From Candidatus Kaiserbacteria bacterium (GTDB lineage Bacteria; Patescibacteriota; Minisyncoccia; Phycocordibacterales; UBA2100), in the NCBI GenBank assembly GCA_016186765.1, contig JACPLD010000001.1:133647-197646 (forward strand): a DNA stretch of 64,000 bases. Reading direction: 5' to 3'. Below, one piece after another: positions 2,994 to 63,823 of the stretch. The first letter of the stretch is position 1. Each line of letters opens with the position of its first letter. A program made the position numbers and the translations under genes. The notes under the pieces were generated by a model that did no database searches, was not told the DNA's origin, and saw only the letters and a list, made by a program, of their open reading frames with translations.

Positions 2994-3305
2994 TTATGAA
3001 TTATCTCTCACGTACCTGCCTTCGGCAACGGCAGCGAGCGTCTGTTGATCATCCTCAGGAGATGCGGCGTTTCTCCGCCTCACACCGCAGCGCGTACACC
3101 GGTGAATAATATCGTAGTGCGGCGAGCTGCCCTCGATTTGCACGGGCTCCATCAAGGCGCCGCAGGAAGCTGCGCGATCGCCCGGTTCGACGTCCACGTG
3201 CTTGCTCCAGAGGCAGCGCGGACAATGGTTCGAGTAGCCGCTTCCCTTCACAGCCGTACCGCATCTCTCACAGGTGAAGTCTTCAAGCACTTTGATGAAT
3301 GTCAT
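2994..3305 (-). CDS. RNHCP-domain zinc-ribbon protein
   Basis: 103 aa with the literal NHCPRC motif (SGYSNHCPRCLW) plus CxxC pairs (CERCG, CTRCG). Confidence 0.7.
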   Translation of the reverse strand: MTFIKVLEDFTCERCGTAVKGSGYSNHCPRCLWSKHVDVEPGDRAASCGALMEPVQIEGSSPHYDIIHRCTRCGVRRRNAASPEDDQQTLAAVAEGRYVRDNS

Positions 3306-14388: not shown

Positions 14389-15273
14389 TTACCGAGCAAT
14401 AAAGCGCCGAATAGCGCGAGCAACATCTCGCTCATAGCCCTTGAATCCATGCCGCGCACCGGCAATTACCATTGCGCGGAAATCGCGCGAGCGATTGTTT
14501 ACCTCGAACCACTTCACGATCTCTTTTGCTGGCCGATCGCCGAATTCATCGCGTCCTGCGAGCAACACGAGAGCCGGCAGGCGAACAGACTTTAGTACTC
14601 TAGGATTTCTCTTCGGATCCCAATAGGTAAATATTTCTTCAGGACCACGTCCTGAGTATAGACTCATGAATCGTTGTGCATCCGCGATCCATGGCCATCC
14701 CCATACACTCGGAGGAAGCAATTCTTTCGCGCGACCGCGTCGCAATGCTCTGCGCGCGTACGTGAGTGCACGAGCAACCTTTTTCTTGTCGTACTCGAGT
14801 CGAAGCGCTGCGTAATCACTGACGGGACCCAGAAGAACGAGGCCTCGCACACCTCTGCCCTTCTTATGAGCCCAAAAGACGGATTTCTGGCAACCGGTCG
14901 AATGGCCGGCAACATAGATTTCCTTCGCGCCCTGCCTGCGCGCAAAGTTGACTGCCCCTTGAATGTCATCGACGCAATCAGTAAAGCGCTCGTGTGCGGC
15001 ACCCGCGCGCAACGCGCGCCGATATACATGGCTCTTATGCGGGAGATACGTGACTTTGTCATGCCCTCTATTATTAAAAGCAAGGACTGCGGTTTTGTTA
15101 TCAACCGATTGCTTTGCTATCTTCAGCTTGCTGAACATGGAACTTCCGAGTCCATGCACCCAAACAATGCACCGTTTGGACCTTTTTGGGCCTAGCCAAA
15201 GACCGTTCAGCAAATATTTTTTCGGCGTGACTATCTCAACGACATGAGCCGGCGTCATGTTCCCTCTTGCCAT
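14389..15273 (-). CDS. alpha/beta hydrolase fold protein
   Basis: 294 aa; GHSTG nucleophile elbow (GxSxG) with upstream HG oxyanion-hole motif (VWVHGLGSS). Confidence 0.7.
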   Translation of the reverse strand: MARGNMTPAHVVEIVTPKKYLLNGLWLGPKRSKRCIVWVHGLGSSMFSKLKIAKQSVDNKTAVLAFNNRGHDKVTYLPHKSHVYRRALRAGAAHERFTDCVDDIQGAVNFARRQGAKEIYVAGHSTGCQKSVFWAHKKGRGVRGLVLLGPVSDYAALRLEYDKKKVARALTYARRALRRGRAKELLPPSVWGWPWIADAQRFMSLYSGRGPEEIFTYWDPKRNPRVLKSVRLPALVLLAGRDEFGDRPAKEIVKWFEVNNRSRDFRAMVIAGARHGFKGYERDVARAIRRFIAR

Positions 15274-16523
15274 GAGCTCAAATATTTTTTTTGTTCAGGT
15301 GAAAGTTTGTCGATTTCTATGCCCATCGAGGCAAGCTTGAGGGAGGCAACAGTTTCCTCGATTTCATCGGAGACGTCGTACACTCCTGATGTCAAGGTGT
15401 CACCTTGACGCACCAGCCACTCGACAGCGAGTGCTTGCGTTGAAAAACTCATGTCCATCACACTCGCCGGATGCCCTTCGGCCGCCGCGAGGTTTACGAG
15501 CCGACCTTCCGAAAGAAGATACACTTTCTTATTTCCTATGCGGTATTCGTCGACGTTCTCACGAATCCGCTTCGGCTTCCCTCCCAGCTTCTCAAGGTCC
15601 TTGAGGCTCACCTCAACATCGAAGTGTCCCGCATTACAGACAAAAGCACCGTCTTTCATCTTCTTGAAGTGTTCGCCGCGAATGACATTGATGTTGCCAG
15701 TGACCGTACAGAAAAGGTCGCCGAAGGGCGCGGCTTCCTCCATCGTGAGCACACGAAAACCGTCCATCGCCGCTTCGAGCGCTTTCACGGCATCAACCTC
15801 GGTGATGATAACGTTTGCACCCATTCCACGTGAGCGCATCGCAAGGCCTTTTCCGCACCAGCCGTAGCCTGCGATCACAAACGTGCGGCCCGCGACGAGC
15901 ATATCGGTCGCGCGGATAATTGCTTCGAGCGTCGATTGGCCGGTGCCATAGCGATTGTCGAAAAGATTTTTCGTCTTTGCGTCGTTCACCGCGACAACGG
16001 GAATTTTGAGTGCTCCGTCGCGCTGCATCGCGCGAAGACGGATAACGCCTGTCGTCGTCTCCTCGGTCGAGCCGATCATCTGCGAAAGGAGCTTCGGATG
16101 GTTCTTATGTATCGTCGAGACTAGATCCGCGCCGTCGTCCATGGTGATGTCCGGCTTCGTCGCAATAACGGCCTCGATATGCTTGAAAAAAGTCTTGCGA
16201 TCTTCCCCAGAAATAGCAAAAACGGGGATTCCGTGCTCGACAAGTCCCGCTGCGGCCTCGTCTTGCGAAGAGAGCGGATTCGATGCACAGAGCGCGACAG
16301 ATGCGCCACCTTCTTTCAGCGTAACCATGAGATTCGCCGTCTCGACGGTCACATGCAGACATGCTCCCACTCGCTTCCCCTTGAGCGGCTTCTCTTTCCG
16401 AAATCGTTCCCGGATCTTCAGCAAAACAGGCATATCCCGCGCCGCCCACTCAATGAGCTGCGCCCCTTCTTTGGCTAGCTTCCTGTCTTTTATGTCGTAT
16501 CGCACGGAGGCAGTATACCCCAT
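15255..16523 (-). CDS. ahcY: adenosylhomocysteinase (S-adenosyl-L-homocysteine hydrolase)
   Basis: 422 aa, conserved along its length (LHVTVETANLMVTLKEGGA..., NAD-binding region GYGWCGKGLA). Confidence 0.95.
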   Translation of the reverse strand: MGYTASVRYDIKDRKLAKEGAQLIEWAARDMPVLLKIRERFRKEKPLKGKRVGACLHVTVETANLMVTLKEGGASVALCASNPLSSQDEAAAGLVEHGIPVFAISGEDRKTFFKHIEAVIATKPDITMDDGADLVSTIHKNHPKLLSQMIGSTEETTTGVIRLRAMQRDGALKIPVVAVNDAKTKNLFDNRYGTGQSTLEAIIRATDMLVAGRTFVIAGYGWCGKGLAMRSRGMGANVIITEVDAVKALEAAMDGFRVLTMEEAAPFGDLFCTVTGNINVIRGEHFKKMKDGAFVCNAGHFDVEVSLKDLEKLGGKPKRIRENVDEYRIGNKKVYLLSEGRLVNLAAAEGHPASVMDMSFSTQALAVEWLVRQGDTLTSGVYDVSDEIEETVASLKLASMGIEIDKLSPEQKKYLSSWQEGT

Positions 16524-16562
16524 TAGATTGCGAGCGGATAGCTCGATCTAACGGGGCAGGCA

Positions 16563-30770: not shown

Positions 30771-31727
30771 TCAGTCCGTCTCAAAAAGAGCGCTCAAGGA
30801 TTCTCCGTCCTCGATGCGGTGTATCGCCTCGCCGAATACCTCACCGACCGAGACGATCTCCACCTTGGACGAGAATGATCTATCCGTTGATATCGTATCC
30901 GTGATAAAAAGTTTCTTGATGGACGAGCCATCGAGTGTGGCTTTCGCTTCCCCGCTCAGGAGTCCGTGGGTCGTGCAGGCGTAGACTTCGCGGGCACCGT
31001 TTTCCGTGAGAAGCTTCGCGGCGGTTGCAAGCGTGCCGCAGGTGTCAGCCATGTCGTCCACGATGAGCGCGATCTTATCCTTCACGTCTCCGATGAGCTT
31101 CATGCGGGTCACTTTGTTCGGAAGCTCCCGTTCTTTGTGAATGATGGCAAGCTCAGCTTCTTTCATGAGACGTTTGGCGTACGACTGGGCGCGCACGACG
31201 CCGCCGACATCGGGAGACACCACAACGAACTTACCTTCTGCGAGAGCTTTCTTGAAGAACTCCCGCAGGTGCGGAATAAACACGCGCCGCGCGAGCAGAT
31301 TGTCGACGATCGCCGTCCGGAAGTAGCCGCCGATGGCGTCGTTGTGCAGATCCATCGTGAGAAAACGATTCGCGCCCAACGTCTCCACTATCGCCGCAAA
31401 AACGCGCGCGGAGATTGGCTCGCGAGGGCGAGACTTTCTGTCCTGTCGCGCGTAGCCGAAGTATGGAACGACCGCTGTTATTTCGCTTGCAGAGGCTCCG
31501 CGAGCTGCATCTATCGCAAGAAAAAGTCGCACCCAATTTTCCGCCGGAGGCGGAGTAGACTGTATGAGAAAAACATGTTTTCCCCGAAGATTCTCGAGGA
31601 ATTGCACATATTGTTCGCCATCGGAAAAGGTTTTGCATTTCACCTCCCCGAGCGGCATCCCGAGCTTCGCCGCAATTTTCTCCGCGAGTCCGTCGTTGCT
31701 GCCAAGACTGAAAACGCGAAAGTCCAT
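30771..31727 (-). CDS. prs: ribose-phosphate pyrophosphokinase
   Basis: 318 aa; PRPP-binding loop ALIVDDMADTCGT; strong Prs conservation throughout. Confidence 0.95.
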   Translation of the reverse strand: MDFRVFSLGSNDGLAEKIAAKLGMPLGEVKCKTFSDGEQYVQFLENLRGKHVFLIQSTPPPAENWVRLFLAIDAARGASASEITAVVPYFGYARQDRKSRPREPISARVFAAIVETLGANRFLTMDLHNDAIGGYFRTAIVDNLLARRVFIPHLREFFKKALAEGKFVVVSPDVGGVVRAQSYAKRLMKEAELAIIHKERELPNKVTRMKLIGDVKDKIALIVDDMADTCGTLATAAKLLTENGAREVYACTTHGLLSGEAKATLDGSSIKKLFITDTISTDRSFSSKVEIVSVGEVFGEAIHRIEDGESLSALFETD

Positions 31728-31753
31728 ATGGATTCGCAGTATAGCAGATTTTG

Positions 31754-31794
31754 TGGACCCAGCGAGAATCGAACTCGCGCCTCTGCAATGTTCA
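31754..31794 (-). pseudogene. 3' half of an interrupted tRNA (acceptor/T-arm portion) - outer split tRNA, 3' segment
   Basis: Reverse complement TGAACATTGCAGAGGCGCGAGTTCGATTCTCGCTGGGTCCA is a paralog of the 3' half of the nested tRNA-Ala. Its acceptor strand TGGGTCC pairs with the GGGCCCA of the 5' half at 31905..31939. Confidence 0.55.
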
Positions 31795-31808
31795 CCCCGT
31801 TAGATAAT
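31795..31808. repeat. left arm of a perfect 14-bp inverted repeat flanking the nested tRNA-Ala
   Basis: ccccgttagataat; reverse complement of attatctaacgggg at 31891..31904. Confidence 0.85.
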
Positions 31809-31814
31809 TTTCTG

Positions 31815-31885
31815 TGGACCTAGCGGGAATCGAACCCGCGCCTCTGCAATGCGAATGCAGCGTTTTGCCACTGAACTATAGGCCC
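31815..31885 (-). tRNA. tRNA-Ala (anticodon CGC), intact, nested inside the interrupted tRNA
   Basis: Reverse complement GGGCCTATAGTTCAGTGGCAAAACGCTGCATTCGCATTGCAGAGGCGCGGGTTCGATTCCCGCTAGGTCCA: G3-U70, anticodon stem CTGCA/TGCAG, loop UUCGCAU, T arm GCGGG-TTCGATT-CCCGC; 71 nt with a short D arm. Confidence 0.8.
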
Positions 31886-31890
31886 GCTGC

Positions 31891-31904
31891 ATTATCTAAC
31901 GGGG
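31891..31904. repeat. right arm of the perfect 14-bp inverted repeat flanking the nested tRNA-Ala
   Basis: attatctaacgggg. Confidence 0.85.
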
Positions 31905-31939
31905 CGTAGTGCAGCGTTTTACCACTGAACTATGGGCCC
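31905..31939 (-). pseudogene. 5' half of the interrupted tRNA (acceptor, D arm, 5' anticodon stem and first 5 loop nt) - outer split tRNA, 5' segment
   Basis: Reverse complement GGGCCCATAGTTCAGTGGTAAAACGCTGCACTACG, near-identical to the 5' half of the nested tRNA-Ala, with G3-U70 retained. Confidence 0.55.
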
Positions 31940-31974
31940 GTTTCTCTCGGACGCGAGAGAATATAGCACGTCTT

Positions 31975-32045
31975 TCGGGCTGCCGAGAATCGAACTCGGG
32001 CTACAAGCACCCCATGCTCGCGTACTACCACTATACGACAGCCCG
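31975..32045 (-). tRNA. tRNA-Pro (anticodon GGG)
   Basis: Reverse complement CGGGCTGTCGTATAGTGGTAGTACGCGAGCATGGGGTGCTTGTAGCCCGAGTTCGATTCTCGGCAGCCCGA: acceptor CGGGCTG/CAGCCCG, anticodon loop AUGGGGU, T arm CCGAG-TTCGATT-CTCGG. Confidence 0.85.
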
Positions 32046-32047
32046 GA

Positions 32048-32118
32048 TCGGGCCGCCGGGAATCGAACCCGGTCTACACGCACCCGAAGCGTGCGTACTA
32101 CCGGTATACTACGGCCCG
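32048..32118 (-). tRNA. tRNA-Pro (anticodon CGG)
   Basis: Reverse complement CGGGCCGTAGTATACCGGTAGTACGCACGCTTCGGGTGCGTGTAGACCGGGTTCGATTCCCGGCGGCCCGA: anticodon stem CACGC/GCGTG, loop UUCGGGU. Only 2 nt separate it from the previous tRNA. Confidence 0.85.
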
Positions 32119-32119
32119 G

Positions 32120-32193
32120 TGCACCCTGAAGGATTCGAACCTTCGGCCTTTCGAATGTGAATCGAACGCTCTAACCAACTGAGCTAAGGGTGC
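32120..32193 (-). tRNA. tRNA-Val (anticodon CAC)
   Basis: Reverse complement GCACCCTTAGCTCAGTTGGTTAGAGCGTTCGATTCACATTCGAAAGGCCGAAGGTTCGAATCCTTCAGGGTGCA: anticodon loop UUCACAU. 1 nt from the neighbouring tRNA-Pro. Confidence 0.85.
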
Positions 32194-32241
32194 GTTCCAG
32201 GATTATCTCTCAAAAATACTGAAGACTCAACGCCAGATTTT

Positions 32242-32739
32242 TTAGGCCCTGCACGTCGTGCACTTGCAATCTTTGCAGCACGCACAATCTCCGGCAGCAC
32301 AATCAGGGCACACGTTGCCCGGACACTTTTTGTAGGGAATCTGGAACGGTCCCGGTCCATACACTTTTATCATGAGGAGACCGCCAATGATCGCGAGATT
32401 TTTGAGGAACATCGTTTGCTGCAGCGGATCCGAAAGATTCGTGTGATACGCGAGAGTGACGAGTGCGATGAAGACGACGAGCGCTGCTGCAGCGATTCGT
32501 GCATGATAGCCGAGGATGAGCATGATCGCTCCGCCAAACTCAACGATGATAGAAAGAACAGCCAAGACACTCGGCGCAGGCAGTCCGGCAGAGGCGATAT
32601 ATGCGACCGCGCCTTCAAAACCGGTGAGCTTCCCCCACCCCGCAACCAAGAACACGAGTCCGAGTAATATACGTGCGAGTACGACGGCATACGTTTTCCA
32701 TCCCGTTTCGCACTTGAGGCAACCACATGTGGCACCCAT
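32242..32739 (-). CDS. DoxX-family membrane protein with a C-terminal Cys-rich tail
   Basis: ORF track 32242..32817; start taken at MGATCG. DoxX-like helices (ILLGLVFLVAGWGKL...); C-terminal CPGNVCPDCAAGDCACCKDCKCTTC. Confidence 0.65.
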   Translation of the reverse strand: MGATCGCLKCETGWKTYAVVLARILLGLVFLVAGWGKLTGFEGAVAYIASAGLPAPSVLAVLSIIVEFGGAIMLILGYHARIAAAALVVFIALVTLAYHTNLSDPLQQTMFLKNLAIIGGLLMIKVYGPGPFQIPYKKCPGNVCPDCAAGDCACCKDCKCTTCRA

Positions 32740-32850: not shown

Positions 32851-33336
32851 TCACTTTATATTCACAATCTTGTACTTTTGGGTGCCCTTGGGCGTGTCGA
32901 ACGAGAAGACGTCGCCTTTCTTTTTCTCCATGAGAGAAGATCCCAGCGGCGAGAGGTGCGATATCTTGTGCTCTTGCATGTTGGCTTCCGCGCTTCCTAC
33001 GATCTCATACGTGTGCTCCTCTTTTTCCCCCTGCTTTTGGATCGTCACAAAGCTTCCGAGCGAAACCGCGCTCCCCTTCCCACCCTTTCCATGCTCGATG
33101 ATACGTGCACGACTAAGCTCCCCCTCGATGGTGCGTATCCGATCTTCGGTCGCCGCCTGTAGGTTCCTCGCCTCTTCGTATTCGGCATTTTCCGAAAGAT
33201 CGCCGAGGCTGCGCGCGTATTCGAGCTGCTCGGCGATCTCGCGCCGCCGCACGGTTTTCAAATGTTCGAGCTCAGCCGTGAGCTCGTCGAATTTTTCTTT
33301 ACTCAAATAGTTTGAGTCGTCTTTTTCATCAATCAT
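32851..33336 (-). CDS. greA: transcription elongation factor GreA
   Basis: 161 aa; N-terminal coiled-coil (LTAELEHLKTVRRREIAEQLEYARSLGDLSENAEY) and C-terminal FKBP-like domain. Confidence 0.9.
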   Translation of the reverse strand: MIDEKDDSNYLSKEKFDELTAELEHLKTVRRREIAEQLEYARSLGDLSENAEYEEARNLQAATEDRIRTIEGELSRARIIEHGKGGKGSAVSLGSFVTIQKQGEKEEHTYEIVGSAEANMQEHKISHLSPLGSSLMEKKKGDVFSFDTPKGTQKYKIVNIK

Positions 33337-33342
33337 GCGCGA

Positions 33343-33380
33343 GCATTATACCTTGATAAGGCGAAAGTCAAAGGGCAAAA
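33343..33380 (-). promoter_or_regulatory. putative sigma70-type promoter of greA (consensus TATAAT -10, TTGACT -35)
   Basis: Minus strand reads ...tttgacttTCGCCTTATCAAGGtataatGCTCGCGC-ATG. Perfect TATAAT lies 8 nt upstream of the start codon (very short leader); TTGACT at a 15-nt spacer. Confidence 0.45.
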
Positions 33381-37261: not shown

Positions 37262-38517
37262 CTATCGTTCGAGGTGTTCAATAAGGTCGTTCTCCGAAAC
37301 AAATGTCGTCAATCCATCCGCGCGCGAGATCACTTCGACCCCCCCTTCCGCCATAGTTTTTTCTGAAATGATGAGACGTTTTGGGATGCCGAGCAGATCC
37401 GAATCGGTAAATTTCTCTCCTGCGCGCATGTCACGATCGTCGTAGAGCGTCTCGATGCCATTTTCCTGCAGAAGCTCGTAGAGCCTGTCCGCCTCGGCGG
37501 AGACATCACGACTCCCGCCCGTGATAGCAATCAGATGCGCGGCAAATGGCGCAACCGCAGGTGGCCATACGAGCCCTTTTTCGTCGGAGAAAACTTCCGC
37601 AAGAGTGCCCATCAAGCGAGTCGGGCCCAGCCCATAGGAGCCCATGACAACATCCTTCTGTTTTCCCGCCCTGTCTTTGAAGTGTAGACCGAGCGCCTTG
37701 GAAAAGCGTGTGCCGAGACTGAAAATATTCCCAATCTCAATTGCTTTTTCTTCGGAGAGCTCGCGTTCCGAAAGTCCGAGATCTGCAAGAACCTCTTCGT
37801 TCATGACCTCTTTATTGACTGCGATACGCTTCTTTTTACTGACGTATATCGTGTCCTCTCCTACATCCGAGAGACACTGGAACTCATGGCTGTACTTCGA
37901 GAATACGCCGCCCCCGGCGAAGGTGCGGTAGGTCCGCTCGCCGAGCTGAAGGCGCGCGAAGACACGTTCGTACGCGGCAGCGACTGTTTCGTAGAGCTTG
38001 CCGTGCTCCTCTTCGGATGAGGCGAACGTGTAGAGATCTTTCATGAGAAATTCGCGACCGCGGATGATCCCGCTCTTCGCGCGTTCCTCGTTGCGGAATT
38101 TCCACTGGATCTGGTAGACGAGCTTTGGCAGATCGTGGTAGCTGGAGATGTGCGAGCGCATGATGCTCGTCAGCGGTTCCTCATGCGTGAAGCCCAAACC
38201 AACCTCACCTCCGTCTTTGAATTTGGTCTTGAACCAGCTGTCGACAGCTGAATCACTCCAACGATCCGTCTGCTCCCACAACTCTTTCTGCTGGAGCGTG
38301 GTCATCAGGATCTCCTGCCCGCCGATTCTGTTCATCTCCTCACGAATGATCGCGTTGATGCGCTCGAGTACGCGCAGGCCGAGCGGCAAAAAGTCGTACA
38401 CTCCCGCCATCTCCTTATTGATGTAGCCTGCACGGATGAGGAGTTGCGCATTCTTTGCGACTTCGTCTTTCGGCGCATCGCGCCGCGTCTTCGTGAAGAG
38501 CGCCGACTGTCGCATGG
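37262..38517 (-). CDS. proS: proline--tRNA ligase
   Basis: ORF track 37262..38674; start taken at MRQSALFTKTRRDAPKDEVAKNAQLLIRAGYI, which aligns with the canonical ProRS N-terminus. Class II motifs (FRNEERAKSGIIRGREFLMKD). Confidence 0.9.
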
Positions 38518-38895
38518 TGGGAGCATTGTAATCGTATGAAGCTGCTTTGCAAAGAAGGAGGCTACACGCGCTCTTCATCTCACGGTTGCTATAGTTGACT
38601 GGTTCGTGTTGAAACGTTGCATACAGCACGATGTGTTCATTGTTCTTCGTCATAGGTAGGGAGAGAGACCCCATGAGATGCAGCGAGACGATTCACCTGC
38701 CGGAAAGCTCCAGATACCCCATCTTCACAGCACAATCGGATATCCGCTTCGAACCGATCCCACGCGTAAACTACGACATGGGTCCCTGTTCGTGCGAGAG
38801 AGAACACATTGCCGCAATCGCCCGTCGGTGGAGAACTGGCACTAATAAAGAAGGCTCTGGAGGTGGCGGCATTCCGCTATGACATTCCCCTACGG

Positions 38896-63590: not shown

Positions 63591-63685
63591 ATCCCCATAG
63601 TACGACGGTCGTGCGTATAGGGCAGCCGCCCGCTGTGGATGAGCACAGATGACCCTGGCGCACCGGTAGCGGCTTCCTATACCCC

Positions 63686-63823
63686 ATGAGATGGCGGCTT
63701 TCGCCTATCTCACGGGGCTCCGTGCTCTGGGACAACAAATCCTGGAAGTACTGGTTCATTACGAGCGGCTACTACCTTGTTGCGCTTCTCCTTATGGGCG
63801 TCGTCCTCGCTCTCTGGACCTAA
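63686..63823 (+). CDS. candidate 45-aa small membrane protein (below ORF-track cutoff)
   Basis: Manual translation MRWRLSPISRGSVLWDNKSWKYWFITSGYYLVALLLMGVVLALWT-stop; single C-terminal TM helix. Confidence 0.25.
   Translation: MRWRLSPISRGSVLWDNKSWKYWFITSGYYLVALLLMGVVLALWT

Follow-up and report, generated by a model that had tools for sequence, protein, structure and literature searches.

On the minus strand of a 64,000-nucleotide stretch of the genome of a Candidatus Kaiserbacteria bacterium (contig JACPLD010000001.1; the whole stretch is referred to in the following as the window), next to prs, the gene for ribose-phosphate pyrophosphokinase, a complete tRNA-Ala gene lies inside another one. 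Between 31939 and 31754 the halves of a tRNA-Ala gene enclose a perfect 14-bp inverted repeat, which itself encloses an intact tRNA-Ala(CGC). The prs product matches, with 100% identity, a protein annotated 'Candidatus Kaiserbacteria bacterium'; the relatives that come next are 74-91% identical and bear, where they are labelled, the names Kaiserbacteria, Parcubacteria or Patescibacteria-group. Locally, the order of genes is PBP (penicillin-binding protein), GreA, DoxX, tRNA-Val, tRNA-Pro, tRNA-Pro, the nested tRNA-Ala locus, prs and tRNA-Arg, with the start codon of prs at 31727 and the prs promoter between the outer 3′ part and the gene.

The features of the locus are collected in table 1. 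A repeat search returned the two arms as a 14-nt pair, 100% complementary, with 82 nt between them, and the outer parts as direct repeats of the inner tRNA (31910-31940 against 31856-31886, 94%; 31749-31790 against 31810-31851, 90%). The outer 3′ part runs from the loop's CAT through the anticodon stem (3′ strand), variable loop and T-arm to the acceptor stem (3′ strand) and A73. From arm to arm the unit measures 110 bp, and holds between its arms the 71-nt tRNA and 11 nt of linkers, with no transposase gene inside; the non-native sequence amounts to 119 bp (CTACG, arm, GCAGC, inner tRNA, CAGAAA, arm, TGAA), found in place of TTCG. The insertion thus lies in the anticodon loop, between native CTGCA...CG and CAT-TGCAG. 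An earlier note on this DNA had described the intact tRNA, the inverted repeat and the outer halves, all of which are present where it placed them; the interrupting unit, which it took to be about 150 nt long, is shorter, and its borders need to be moved, the native 5′ part ending at 31910 after CTGCA and not with CTACG, and the native 3′ part starting at 31790 with CAT and not with TGAACAT.

Table 1. Positions of the features of the nested locus, of the hairpin-repeat family and of the neighbourhood (numbering of the window, unless a locus, L, is named).
Feature	Position	Strand	Evidence or remark
Promoter-like TGCTATATT and leader hairpin CTCTCGCGTCCGAGAG	31940..31968 (TGCTATATT, 31968..31960)	-	precede outer 5′ part
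Outer 5′ part GGGCCCATAGTTCAGTGGTAAAACGCTGCA, 30 nt, acceptor 5′ strand to anticodon-stem 5′ strand	31910..31939	-	30/30 against uninterrupted ortholog
Left junction CTACG, non-native, at the place of native-loop TTCG	31905..31909	-	against L007 empty site CTGCA-TTCG-CAT-TGCAG
Left arm CCCCGTTAGATAAT, member of CCCCRTKAGAT hairpin-repeat family	31891..31904	-	14/14 complementary to right arm
Linker GCAGC, left arm to inner tRNA	31886..31890	-	read from sequence
Inner tRNA-Ala(CGC), 71 nt, complete	31815..31885	-	ARAGORN, Rfam
Linker CAGAAA, inner tRNA to right arm	31809..31814	-	read from sequence
Right arm ATTATCTAACGGGG	31795..31808	-	pairing with left arm; family membership
TGAA, non-native, usual outer extension of repeat family	31791..31794	-	missing from empty site
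Outer 3′ part CATTGCAGAGGCGCGAGTTCGATTCTCGCTGGGTCCA, 37 nt	31754..31790	-	37/37 against L007-group gene; direct repeat with inner tRNA
Short copy CCCCATTAGAT, 17 nt, ATCTAACGGGG	16518..16556	.	repeat search, 11 nt, 91%
Short copy CCCCATGAGAT, 14 nt, ATCTCACGGGG	63682..63717	.	
Solo arm CCCCATGAGAT	38669..38679	+	overlaps first in-frame ATG (38674)
greA copy, 112-116 bp	L007:966-1079; L008:325-438; L009		exactly at greA start codon
L118 hairpins, examples	2210-2249, 2707-2747, 3212-3252		
Boxes near start codons or promoter-like	31738-31746 and 31725-31727; 33336-33355; 31960-31968		
Two-hairpin leader	L007:2821-2903; L016:389-459; L104:2335-2407; L107:2088-2162 (minus strand)		
G+C-rich spacer insertions in relatives	L004:2140-2282, 1815-1995; L020:112-255; L016:140-265		

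The history of the outer gene can be read from its relatives. The loci compared were the prs neighbourhoods of organisms with a Prs 86-91% identical, making up about seven distinct lineages, and of two more distant organisms (L021 and L023) obtained from a DNA scan, 21 loci altogether (L004, L007-L011, L016, L018-L020, L022, L104-L107, L109-L112, L021 and L023). Every one of these loci that contains a tRNA-Ala(CGC) has the gene uninterrupted, and in the closest group, formed by the near-identical loci of L007 and its companions, it occupies the same place, the order Val-Pro-Pro-Ala-prs being that of the window. The tRNA of the L007 group reads GGGCCCATAGTTCAGTGGTAAAACGCTGCA-TTCG-CATTGCAGAGGCGCGAGTTCGATTCTCGCTGGGTCCA, i.e. 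the outer 5′ 30 nt of the window, TTCG and the outer 3′ 37 nt, with 67/67 positions identical; the 5′ part is 30/30 identical in L007, L008, L009, L010, L020 and L022. The upstream leader and the downstream prs promoter match between the window and L007 as well, and L007 has TGGTATATT and the same leader hairpin immediately before GGGCCCATA. The uninterrupted ortholog of L007 scores 67.5 bits with the Rfam tRNA model, and the ancestral loop is UUCGCAU, with anticodon CGC (L007:2904-2977). Judged by sequence and place, the outer gene is ancestral, an ortholog of the resident tRNA-Ala(CGC), and not the distinct tRNA-Ala-like paralog of the earlier note; it is the inner gene that arrived later. 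For the joined halves that note had proposed a loop reading CUACGAU, with ACG as anticodon, which is an artefact of the junction bases. The promoter-like TGCTATATT, which resembles TGnTATAnT and was not listed by a strict consensus scan, would, with the leader hairpin, act as the promoter region driving the whole unit.

The relative age of the split can be judged from prs, of whose four-fold degenerate sites 50% differ between the window and L007. Set against this divergence, the identity of all 67 outer positions and the complementarity of all 14 arm positions imply that the split is far younger than the separation of the two lineages, or else that the halves are constrained. As a side observation, L007 encodes the 3′ CCA after A73 (GGGTCCA-CCA, L007:2975-2977), where the window has CAA behind the outer 3′ part (31751-31753) and CAG behind the inner tRNA. 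CAA for CCA may be a first sign of decay of the outer gene, or normal variation, which is possible because several tRNAs here lack an encoded CCA.

The inner gene is called as tRNA-Ala(CGC) on the minus strand by ARAGORN (31814-31885) and as a tRNA by Rfam (31815-31885; 67.4 bits, E = 2.5e-14); it carries G3:U70 and A73, and CCA is not encoded. Both programs call the inner gene only, and ARAGORN run with the intron options, a check suggested earlier, does not call the outer one. With the outer gene restored, the two are 93% identical and differ at five positions: at 6/65, where C:G is replaced by T:A in the acceptor stem, at 50/60, where A:T is replaced by G:C in the T stem, and at 19 in the D-loop. 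The compensatory differences between outer and inner tRNA to which the earlier note had drawn attention are, therefore, real, and correspond to 6/65 and 50/60. All five differences fall on the lineage of the inner gene and, as they include two compensatory pairs, they mark this gene as a tRNA evolved under function in another lineage, rather than a fresh local duplicate; the inner tRNA is presumed to be the functional copy. On the plus strand, two Rfam matches to 'Plastid-ycf2 5′UTR' (31814-31885 and 32119-32193), which at 34-38 bits do not reach the gathering score, reflect tRNA genes read in antisense and are a false lead, and a match to 'tmRNA_permuted' is likewise noise (antisense-tRNA or sub-threshold).

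That such an arrangement could be produced by the collapse or mixing of tRNA-Ala alleles during assembly is a legitimate concern, in that the sequence is of metagenome-assembled type and derives from a strain mixture, and tRNA repeats do break assemblies, the Logan contigs stopping inside the neighbouring tRNA-Pro. Three Logan assemblies (SRR12113424, SRR12113420 and SRR12113433) equal the window base for base through the whole structure, its flanks and every junction, so that the nested structure is not a one-off misassembly. Since assemblies of three different runs agree across all junctions, and since an artefact would not yield 14-bp arms belonging to a repeat family present elsewhere in the genome, this explanation is hardly credible. 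An invertible segment was also considered and rejected: a single orientation is found in all four assemblies, and the short copies of the family, with loops of 8-19 nt, cannot invert.

At the RNA level the 186-nt transcript is predicted to fold as a nested structure (-83.4 kcal/mol, z = -5.8), in which, in the minimum free energy and all near-optimal folds, the junction consists of the 5-bp stem, a 3x5 internal loop and a 16-bp helix, CTACG contributing C-G and G.U pairs to the arm helix. Pairing between leader and trailer is not a general trait of the tRNAs of this genome: for the other seven tRNAs of the window, no more than 6 bases are complementary between the 40-nt flanks, random flanks have a mean of 4.9 and a maximum of 10 (2000 trials), and the analytic chance of a complementary run of at least 14 is about 3e-6. 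The outer halves still fold with each other around the arm helix, are undamaged (67/67), and retain G3:U70 and A73, so that alanyl-tRNA synthetase, which reads G3:U70 and not the anticodon, could charge them. An RNA-level arrangement may, therefore, be envisaged, in which the 110-119-nt block is an intron or processing unit and the outer halves yield a functional tRNA, either spliced or held together by the helix as two pieces, all the more as Patescibacteria are rich in tRNA and rRNA insertions (PMC13011429, PMC11270868). However, the undamaged halves are accounted for by the recency of the event. The block, too short, carries no group I or group II signature in Rfam, and the bulge-helix-bulge motif is missing from the junction folds. 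A Pfam scan, which took in 59 of the 64 open reading frames (ORFs) of the 64-kb window, found no match to a splicing endonuclease or RtcB. Finally, rejoining the native parts would require that 119 nt be cut out precisely and that TTCG, lost from the gene, be put back, and the arrangement occurs in a single lineage, with nothing to indicate selection. We regard this alternative as very improbable, and the intron and the split or permuted tRNA that the earlier note had listed among its candidates fall with it.

In particular, group I introns do sit in the anticodon loop of Patescibacteria tRNA genes, using the 35/36 site for tRNA-Asn as well as tRNA-Asp (PMC13011429), and insertions are frequent in the rRNA genes of the phylum (PMC11270868). 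The likeness extends to the phylum, the kind of host gene and the anticodon-loop insertion, here after nucleotide 35; the differences are that the block of 110-119 nt, as against about 200 nt or more, has no group I core of P3-P9 and a tRNA inside, with no Rfam hit to a group I intron in 31400-32400 at E up to 10, and that the flanking loop bases are changed, so that joining the exons exactly would leave the loop unrestored. The bulge-helix-bulge introns and split tRNAs of archaea, known from Nanoarchaeum and Caldivirga (PMC4090602), share with the present case two halves joined by a long complementary helix beside the anticodon stem. In contrast, the host is here a bacterium, the two 3-nt bulges separated by 4 bp are not present at the junctions, where a 3x5 internal loop is found, the halves are on one transcript, no splicing endonuclease occurs among the window ORFs scanned, and the nested form is not conserved in the relatives. 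A permuted tRNA is rejected by the order of the pieces, 5′ part and then 3′ part on the same strand.

The arms belong to a dispersed family of hairpin repeats, polymorphic among relatives and defined by the 11-mer CCCCRTKAGAT, which occurs 7 times in the window, against 0.09 expected, and 0 times in 80 unrelated control loci. The seven copies are three inverted pairs and one solo arm. Besides the pair at the tRNA, one short pair sits between a PfkB-family kinase gene and the ORF 15255..16523, which we take, by eye, to encode an S-adenosylhomocysteine (SAH)-hydrolase-like protein; the other lies near the end of the window and, compared with the 16.5-kb copy, bears in its arms a compensatory change from T:A to G:C. 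The ATG overlapped by the solo arm belongs to a class II aminoacyl-tRNA-synthetase ORF (37262..38674). As further observations on these copies, the short ones lie directly upstream of, or overlap, candidate start codons (ATCTNATGGGG followed by TATA(C/G)), and in both short pairs the lone arm mismatch is a G.U pair on the minus (sense) strand.

A second long copy was found by BLAST of the non-tRNA parts against all fetched loci. L007, L008 and L009 contain a near-identical inverted pair, TCCCGTTAGAAAT and ATTTCTAACGGGA, perfect over 13-14 bp, with about 86 nt in between and then, as in the window, TGAAC. This copy is placed so that the end of the element and TGAA rebuild the ATG of greA and the reading frame continues (GGG ATG AAC GGT...). 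The same site is without the element in the window (33336), L004 and L104, so that the greA site, filled in some relatives and empty in others, is an insertion polymorphism. The core of the L007 copy is unrelated to tRNA, and Rfam finds nothing in it; a decayed tRNA was rejected on the basis of a global alignment no better than that of shuffled sequences (z about 0.5) and the absence of an Rfam match.

Scans of IMG/VR with the degenerate pair returned many copies with these arms in phage-like contigs of 41-53% G+C, many of them placed between small co-directional genes with a Shine-Dalgarno sequence immediately downstream. The sequences that extend the arms are conserved too, being TTTA or TTCA ahead of CCCC and, behind GGGG, TGAA or TAAA; the latter are found at the GGGG arm of the L007 copy and of most copies from IMG/VR, and, being the usual end of the family, make the TGAA of the window part of the repeat, rather than a target duplication. 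A 13-kb contig (L118, IMGVR_UViG_3300031369_000089) holds at least nine hairpin copies between small co-directional ORFs of unknown function, for which a single PHROG match, again of unknown function, was obtained; each hairpin is 3-6 nt upstream of an AAGGAG ribosome-binding site. The layout of this contig resembles the mobile regulatory stem-loops of T4-type phages. In another phage-like contig (L120:8374-8489) a hairpin copy is separated by 4 nt from a tRNA-Met gene's 3′ end, which suggests how tRNA genes and repeats could become linked.

Such positions raise the question of whether the arms are primarily a functional hairpin, e.g. an RNase III-type processing stem or a protein-binding site common to bacteria of the candidate phyla radiation (CPR) and phages, used to excise structured RNAs, with mobility as a secondary property. 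The stem sequence is conserved while the loops vary, compensatory T:A to G:C changes distinguish copies, and these occupy transcribed intergenic positions, in many cases with a Shine-Dalgarno sequence or start codon immediately downstream, as in L118 (GGGG-TAAAAAAGGAG-N7-ATG), in the 16.5-kb copy of the window and in the L007 greA copy. However, new copies at new sites, such as greA and the tRNA loop, still require DNA insertion, the hairpins match no Rfam family, the strand of the G.U mismatch is inconsistent (sense in the window and antisense in L118), and a functional hairpin does not itself account for the split of the resident tRNA; this reading, though compatible with the data, is distinctly unlikely.

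A recent insertion of a repeat-flanked tRNA cassette into the resident tRNA-Ala(CGC), which was the third alternative of the earlier note (a pseudogene created by a MITE-like, tRNA-carrying insertion; MITE, miniature inverted-repeat transposable element), is the account that we favour as probable, given arms drawn from a dispersed inverted-repeat family and relatives with an uninterrupted gene. According to this model, the arm-tRNA-arm cassette would have been inserted in the anticodon loop of the resident gene after nucleotide 35. The cassette, a MITE-like or 'mobile insertion cassette' (MIC)-like unit with the tRNA as passenger, would consist of a whole tRNA-Ala(CGC) from another lineage with inverted repeat copies of CCCCGTTAGATAAT 5-6 bp off each side, and it probably arrived pre-formed. 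The insertion would at the same time have destroyed the resident gene, of which the outer halves would be the remains, and supplied a working substitute. A single RNA would be transcribed from the old promoter, running from the outer 5′ part through the first arm, the inner tRNA and the second arm to the outer 3′ part. In it the arms would pair as a 14-16-bp helix at the base of the inner tRNA and so present it, and RNase P, 3′ trimming and CCA addition would release this tRNA. The outer pieces, without an anticodon loop, would not be able to decode, and the outer gene is presumably a fresh, non-functional pseudogene.

Several observations weigh against this reading. There is no target-site duplication at the tRNA copy, where the flanks are CTACG and TGAA and the native TTCG is lost. 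No transposase or integrase and no HUH/Y1 gene or Y1_Tnp match was found among the ORFs scanned, and no autonomous element with the arms of the family was found. The cargo being an Ala(CGC) tRNA in an Ala(CGC) gene is a coincidence that goes beyond a random-insertion model. Only one tRNA-bearing copy is known, that of the window; the cargoes of the two long copies are unrelated, and the short copies have loops of 8-19 nt. The exact arm pair was not found in IMG/VR, nor the exact 3′ 47-mer of the inner tRNA in the JGI metagenome collection. The nested form is, moreover, known from a single lineage. A degenerate 3′-half pattern returned from the JGI metagenomes plain intact genes only.

The match between cargo and target may owe something to homology, unless an insertion of this kind was the only one harmless enough to persist. 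The former leads to the main competitor, an in-situ origin, in which the nested structure was built stepwise at the locus; for instance, a short hairpin may first have entered the loop, and a homologous tRNA-Ala(CGC) of phage or strain DNA may then have been brought in by break repair or recombination. This would fit the lack of a target duplication and the untidy left junction (TTCG to CTACG), and cargo and target, being the same isoacceptor and 93% identical, hint at homology; short repeat copies exist that could be the primary inserting unit, and the tRNA-Met of L120 lies 4 nt from a hairpin copy. On the other hand, if an intact donor were used in ordinary homologous repair, one gene would be restored rather than two nested, at least two rare events would be needed at one 7-nt site, the arms face outward like the ends of a single unit, and the tRNA unit and the L007 greA copy are in the same size class (110 against 112-116 bp). 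An in-situ origin is, on this evidence, somewhat unlikely.

If the insertion of a cassette is accepted, the kind of mobilisation remains to be considered. Classical cut-and-paste with target duplication is rejected, as no reading of the element boundaries gives a direct repeat at the tRNA copy; the short copies likewise have no target duplication, and the greA copy is the only one that can be read as having a 2-4-bp duplication (GA or TGAA), TGAA being also the usual end of the family. The lack of target duplication, the altered left junction and the lack of a transposase would be better accommodated by repetitive extragenic palindrome (REP)- or REP doublet (REPIN)-like mobilisation, another non-DDE mechanism or a multi-step origin than by a classical MITE. 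Similarly, unrelated cargoes and short loops would be unusual for a classical MITE, and appear to fit a REP/REPIN-like or a purely structural motif equally well.

MITEs and MICs are short, non-autonomous elements with terminal inverted repeats, of which the MICs also carry passenger genes (PMC3913671). The present unit is like them in its 110 bp, its perfect 14-bp terminal inverted repeats, the lack of a transposase, the passenger gene between the ends, arms common to other copies and the presence/absence polymorphism at the tRNA and greA sites. It differs from them in the tRNA passenger, the lack of target duplication, the unrelated cores, the many copies of only 30-40 bp and the lack of a known parent insertion sequence (IS). 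We know of no report of a tRNA passenger in a bacterial MITE or MIC, and neither a nested bacterial tRNA nor a tRNA-carrying MITE came up in literature searches.

REP and REPIN elements are mobilised by REP-associated tyrosine transposases (RAYTs) of the Y1/HUH type. They have in common with the hairpin family dispersed short intergenic palindromes with a conserved stem and a variable loop, the coexistence of singlets and longer inverted doublets, the lack of target duplication, and relatives that encode Y1 transposases (L011, PF01797). Differences are found in the hairpin family being without a GTAG-type 5′ tetranucleotide, in the single arm not being palindromic, in no RAYT gene occurring among the window ORFs scanned and in the presence of the family also in phage-like contigs. 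Integron attC sites, which carry R″ (RYYYAAC) at their 5′ end and, at their 3′ end, R′ (GTTRRRY), so that AAC and GTT point inwards, were considered on account of the GTTAGAT/ATCTAAC in the arms and rejected: order and polarity are opposite, with GTT outermost, and most copies of the family have GTG/CAC.

Phages and integrative and conjugative elements (ICEs), in the classification of Williams (2002), reportedly integrate into tRNA genes with a crossover often in the anticodon loop, the element bringing a replacement segment. Here too a foreign element breaks a tRNA gene at the anticodon loop and carries sequence that keeps a functional tRNA, but a whole tRNA is carried, in only 110 bp, without an integrase and without hybrid attL/attR tRNAs; the resemblance would be limited to the outcome, i.e. 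a disrupted gene and a supplied substitute. Indeed, an integrase-mediated, tRNA-targeting island is rejected, as there is no integrase gene near the nested locus and no outer part is fused to a complementing part. Bacterial rRNA intervening sequences are excised by RNase III without religation. Like them, the unit is a short insertion in a stable-RNA gene, with ends that pair into a long helix; a fragmented rRNA stays functional, whereas a tRNA without its anticodon loop does not. Non-intron insertions are also carried by the rRNA genes of CPR bacteria (PMC11270868).

The surroundings of the locus are themselves variable. The tRNA array is a hotspot for small insertions: in the relatives, its spacers hold lineage-specific G+C-rich, hairpin-rich insertions of 120-180 nt, of which the window has none. 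The array is inverted relative to prs in L004, L011 and L107. An rve-family IS lies directly upstream of the greA promoter in L007 (L007:1-965), and a Y1 (IS200/IS605-type) transposase gene (PF01797) near the tRNA-Ala(GGC) of L011 (L011:3423-4109), so that both kinds of transposase exist in this clade. The former was considered as a parent of the repeat family and rejected, since its end abuts the greA promoter and its terminal sequence differs.

A conserved leader of 65-85 nt with two hairpins stands before the tRNA-Ala(CGC) of most relatives and is missing in the window, L004 and L109; it starts with an exact copy of the first 9-10 nt of the tRNA (GGGCCYATA). Position 6 of this copy (C/T) follows the allele of the local tRNA and also changes together with its partner in hairpin 1, with compensatory changes in 5/20 pairs. 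The leader may have a regulatory role as a mimic of the tRNA 5′ end, or be another small site-specific insertion with a 9-bp duplication. In the window, promoter-like TGnTATAnT or GGTATAAT boxes are found only 6-10 nt upstream of the start codons of prs, greA and possibly the GTG of ahcY, which suggests leaderless or nearly leaderless mRNAs in this organism.

A more far-reaching proposal, which is unlikely as it stands, is that the CCCCRTKAGAT hairpins are the ends of an undescribed small mobile cassette system common to CPR bacteria and phages, which can carry a tRNA and inserts into stem-loop targets such as the cognate anticodon arm; in effect, it would be a selfish element that replaces a host tRNA allele with its own. 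In a bolder variant, the outer pieces would survive as a two-piece RNA chargeable with alanine.

If the insertion reading is correct, the locus would be, to our knowledge, the first known bacterial MITE- or REPIN-like unit with a complete tRNA inside the anticodon loop of the gene that it can replace, and a compact case of a self-complementing insertion. It would also warn annotators of CPR genomes that tRNA fragments beside an intact tRNA may be what is left of the original gene, and that a tRNA-in-tRNA picture does not by itself imply a bacterial split or spliced tRNA. The precursor RNA would be a natural substrate on which to study RNase P, RNase III and 3′ processing of a tRNA within a tRNA. 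Finally, an unannotated hairpin-repeat family common to Kaiserbacteria chromosomes and phage-like contigs would come to light, which could mark phage-host links and small-scale plasticity in very reduced genomes.

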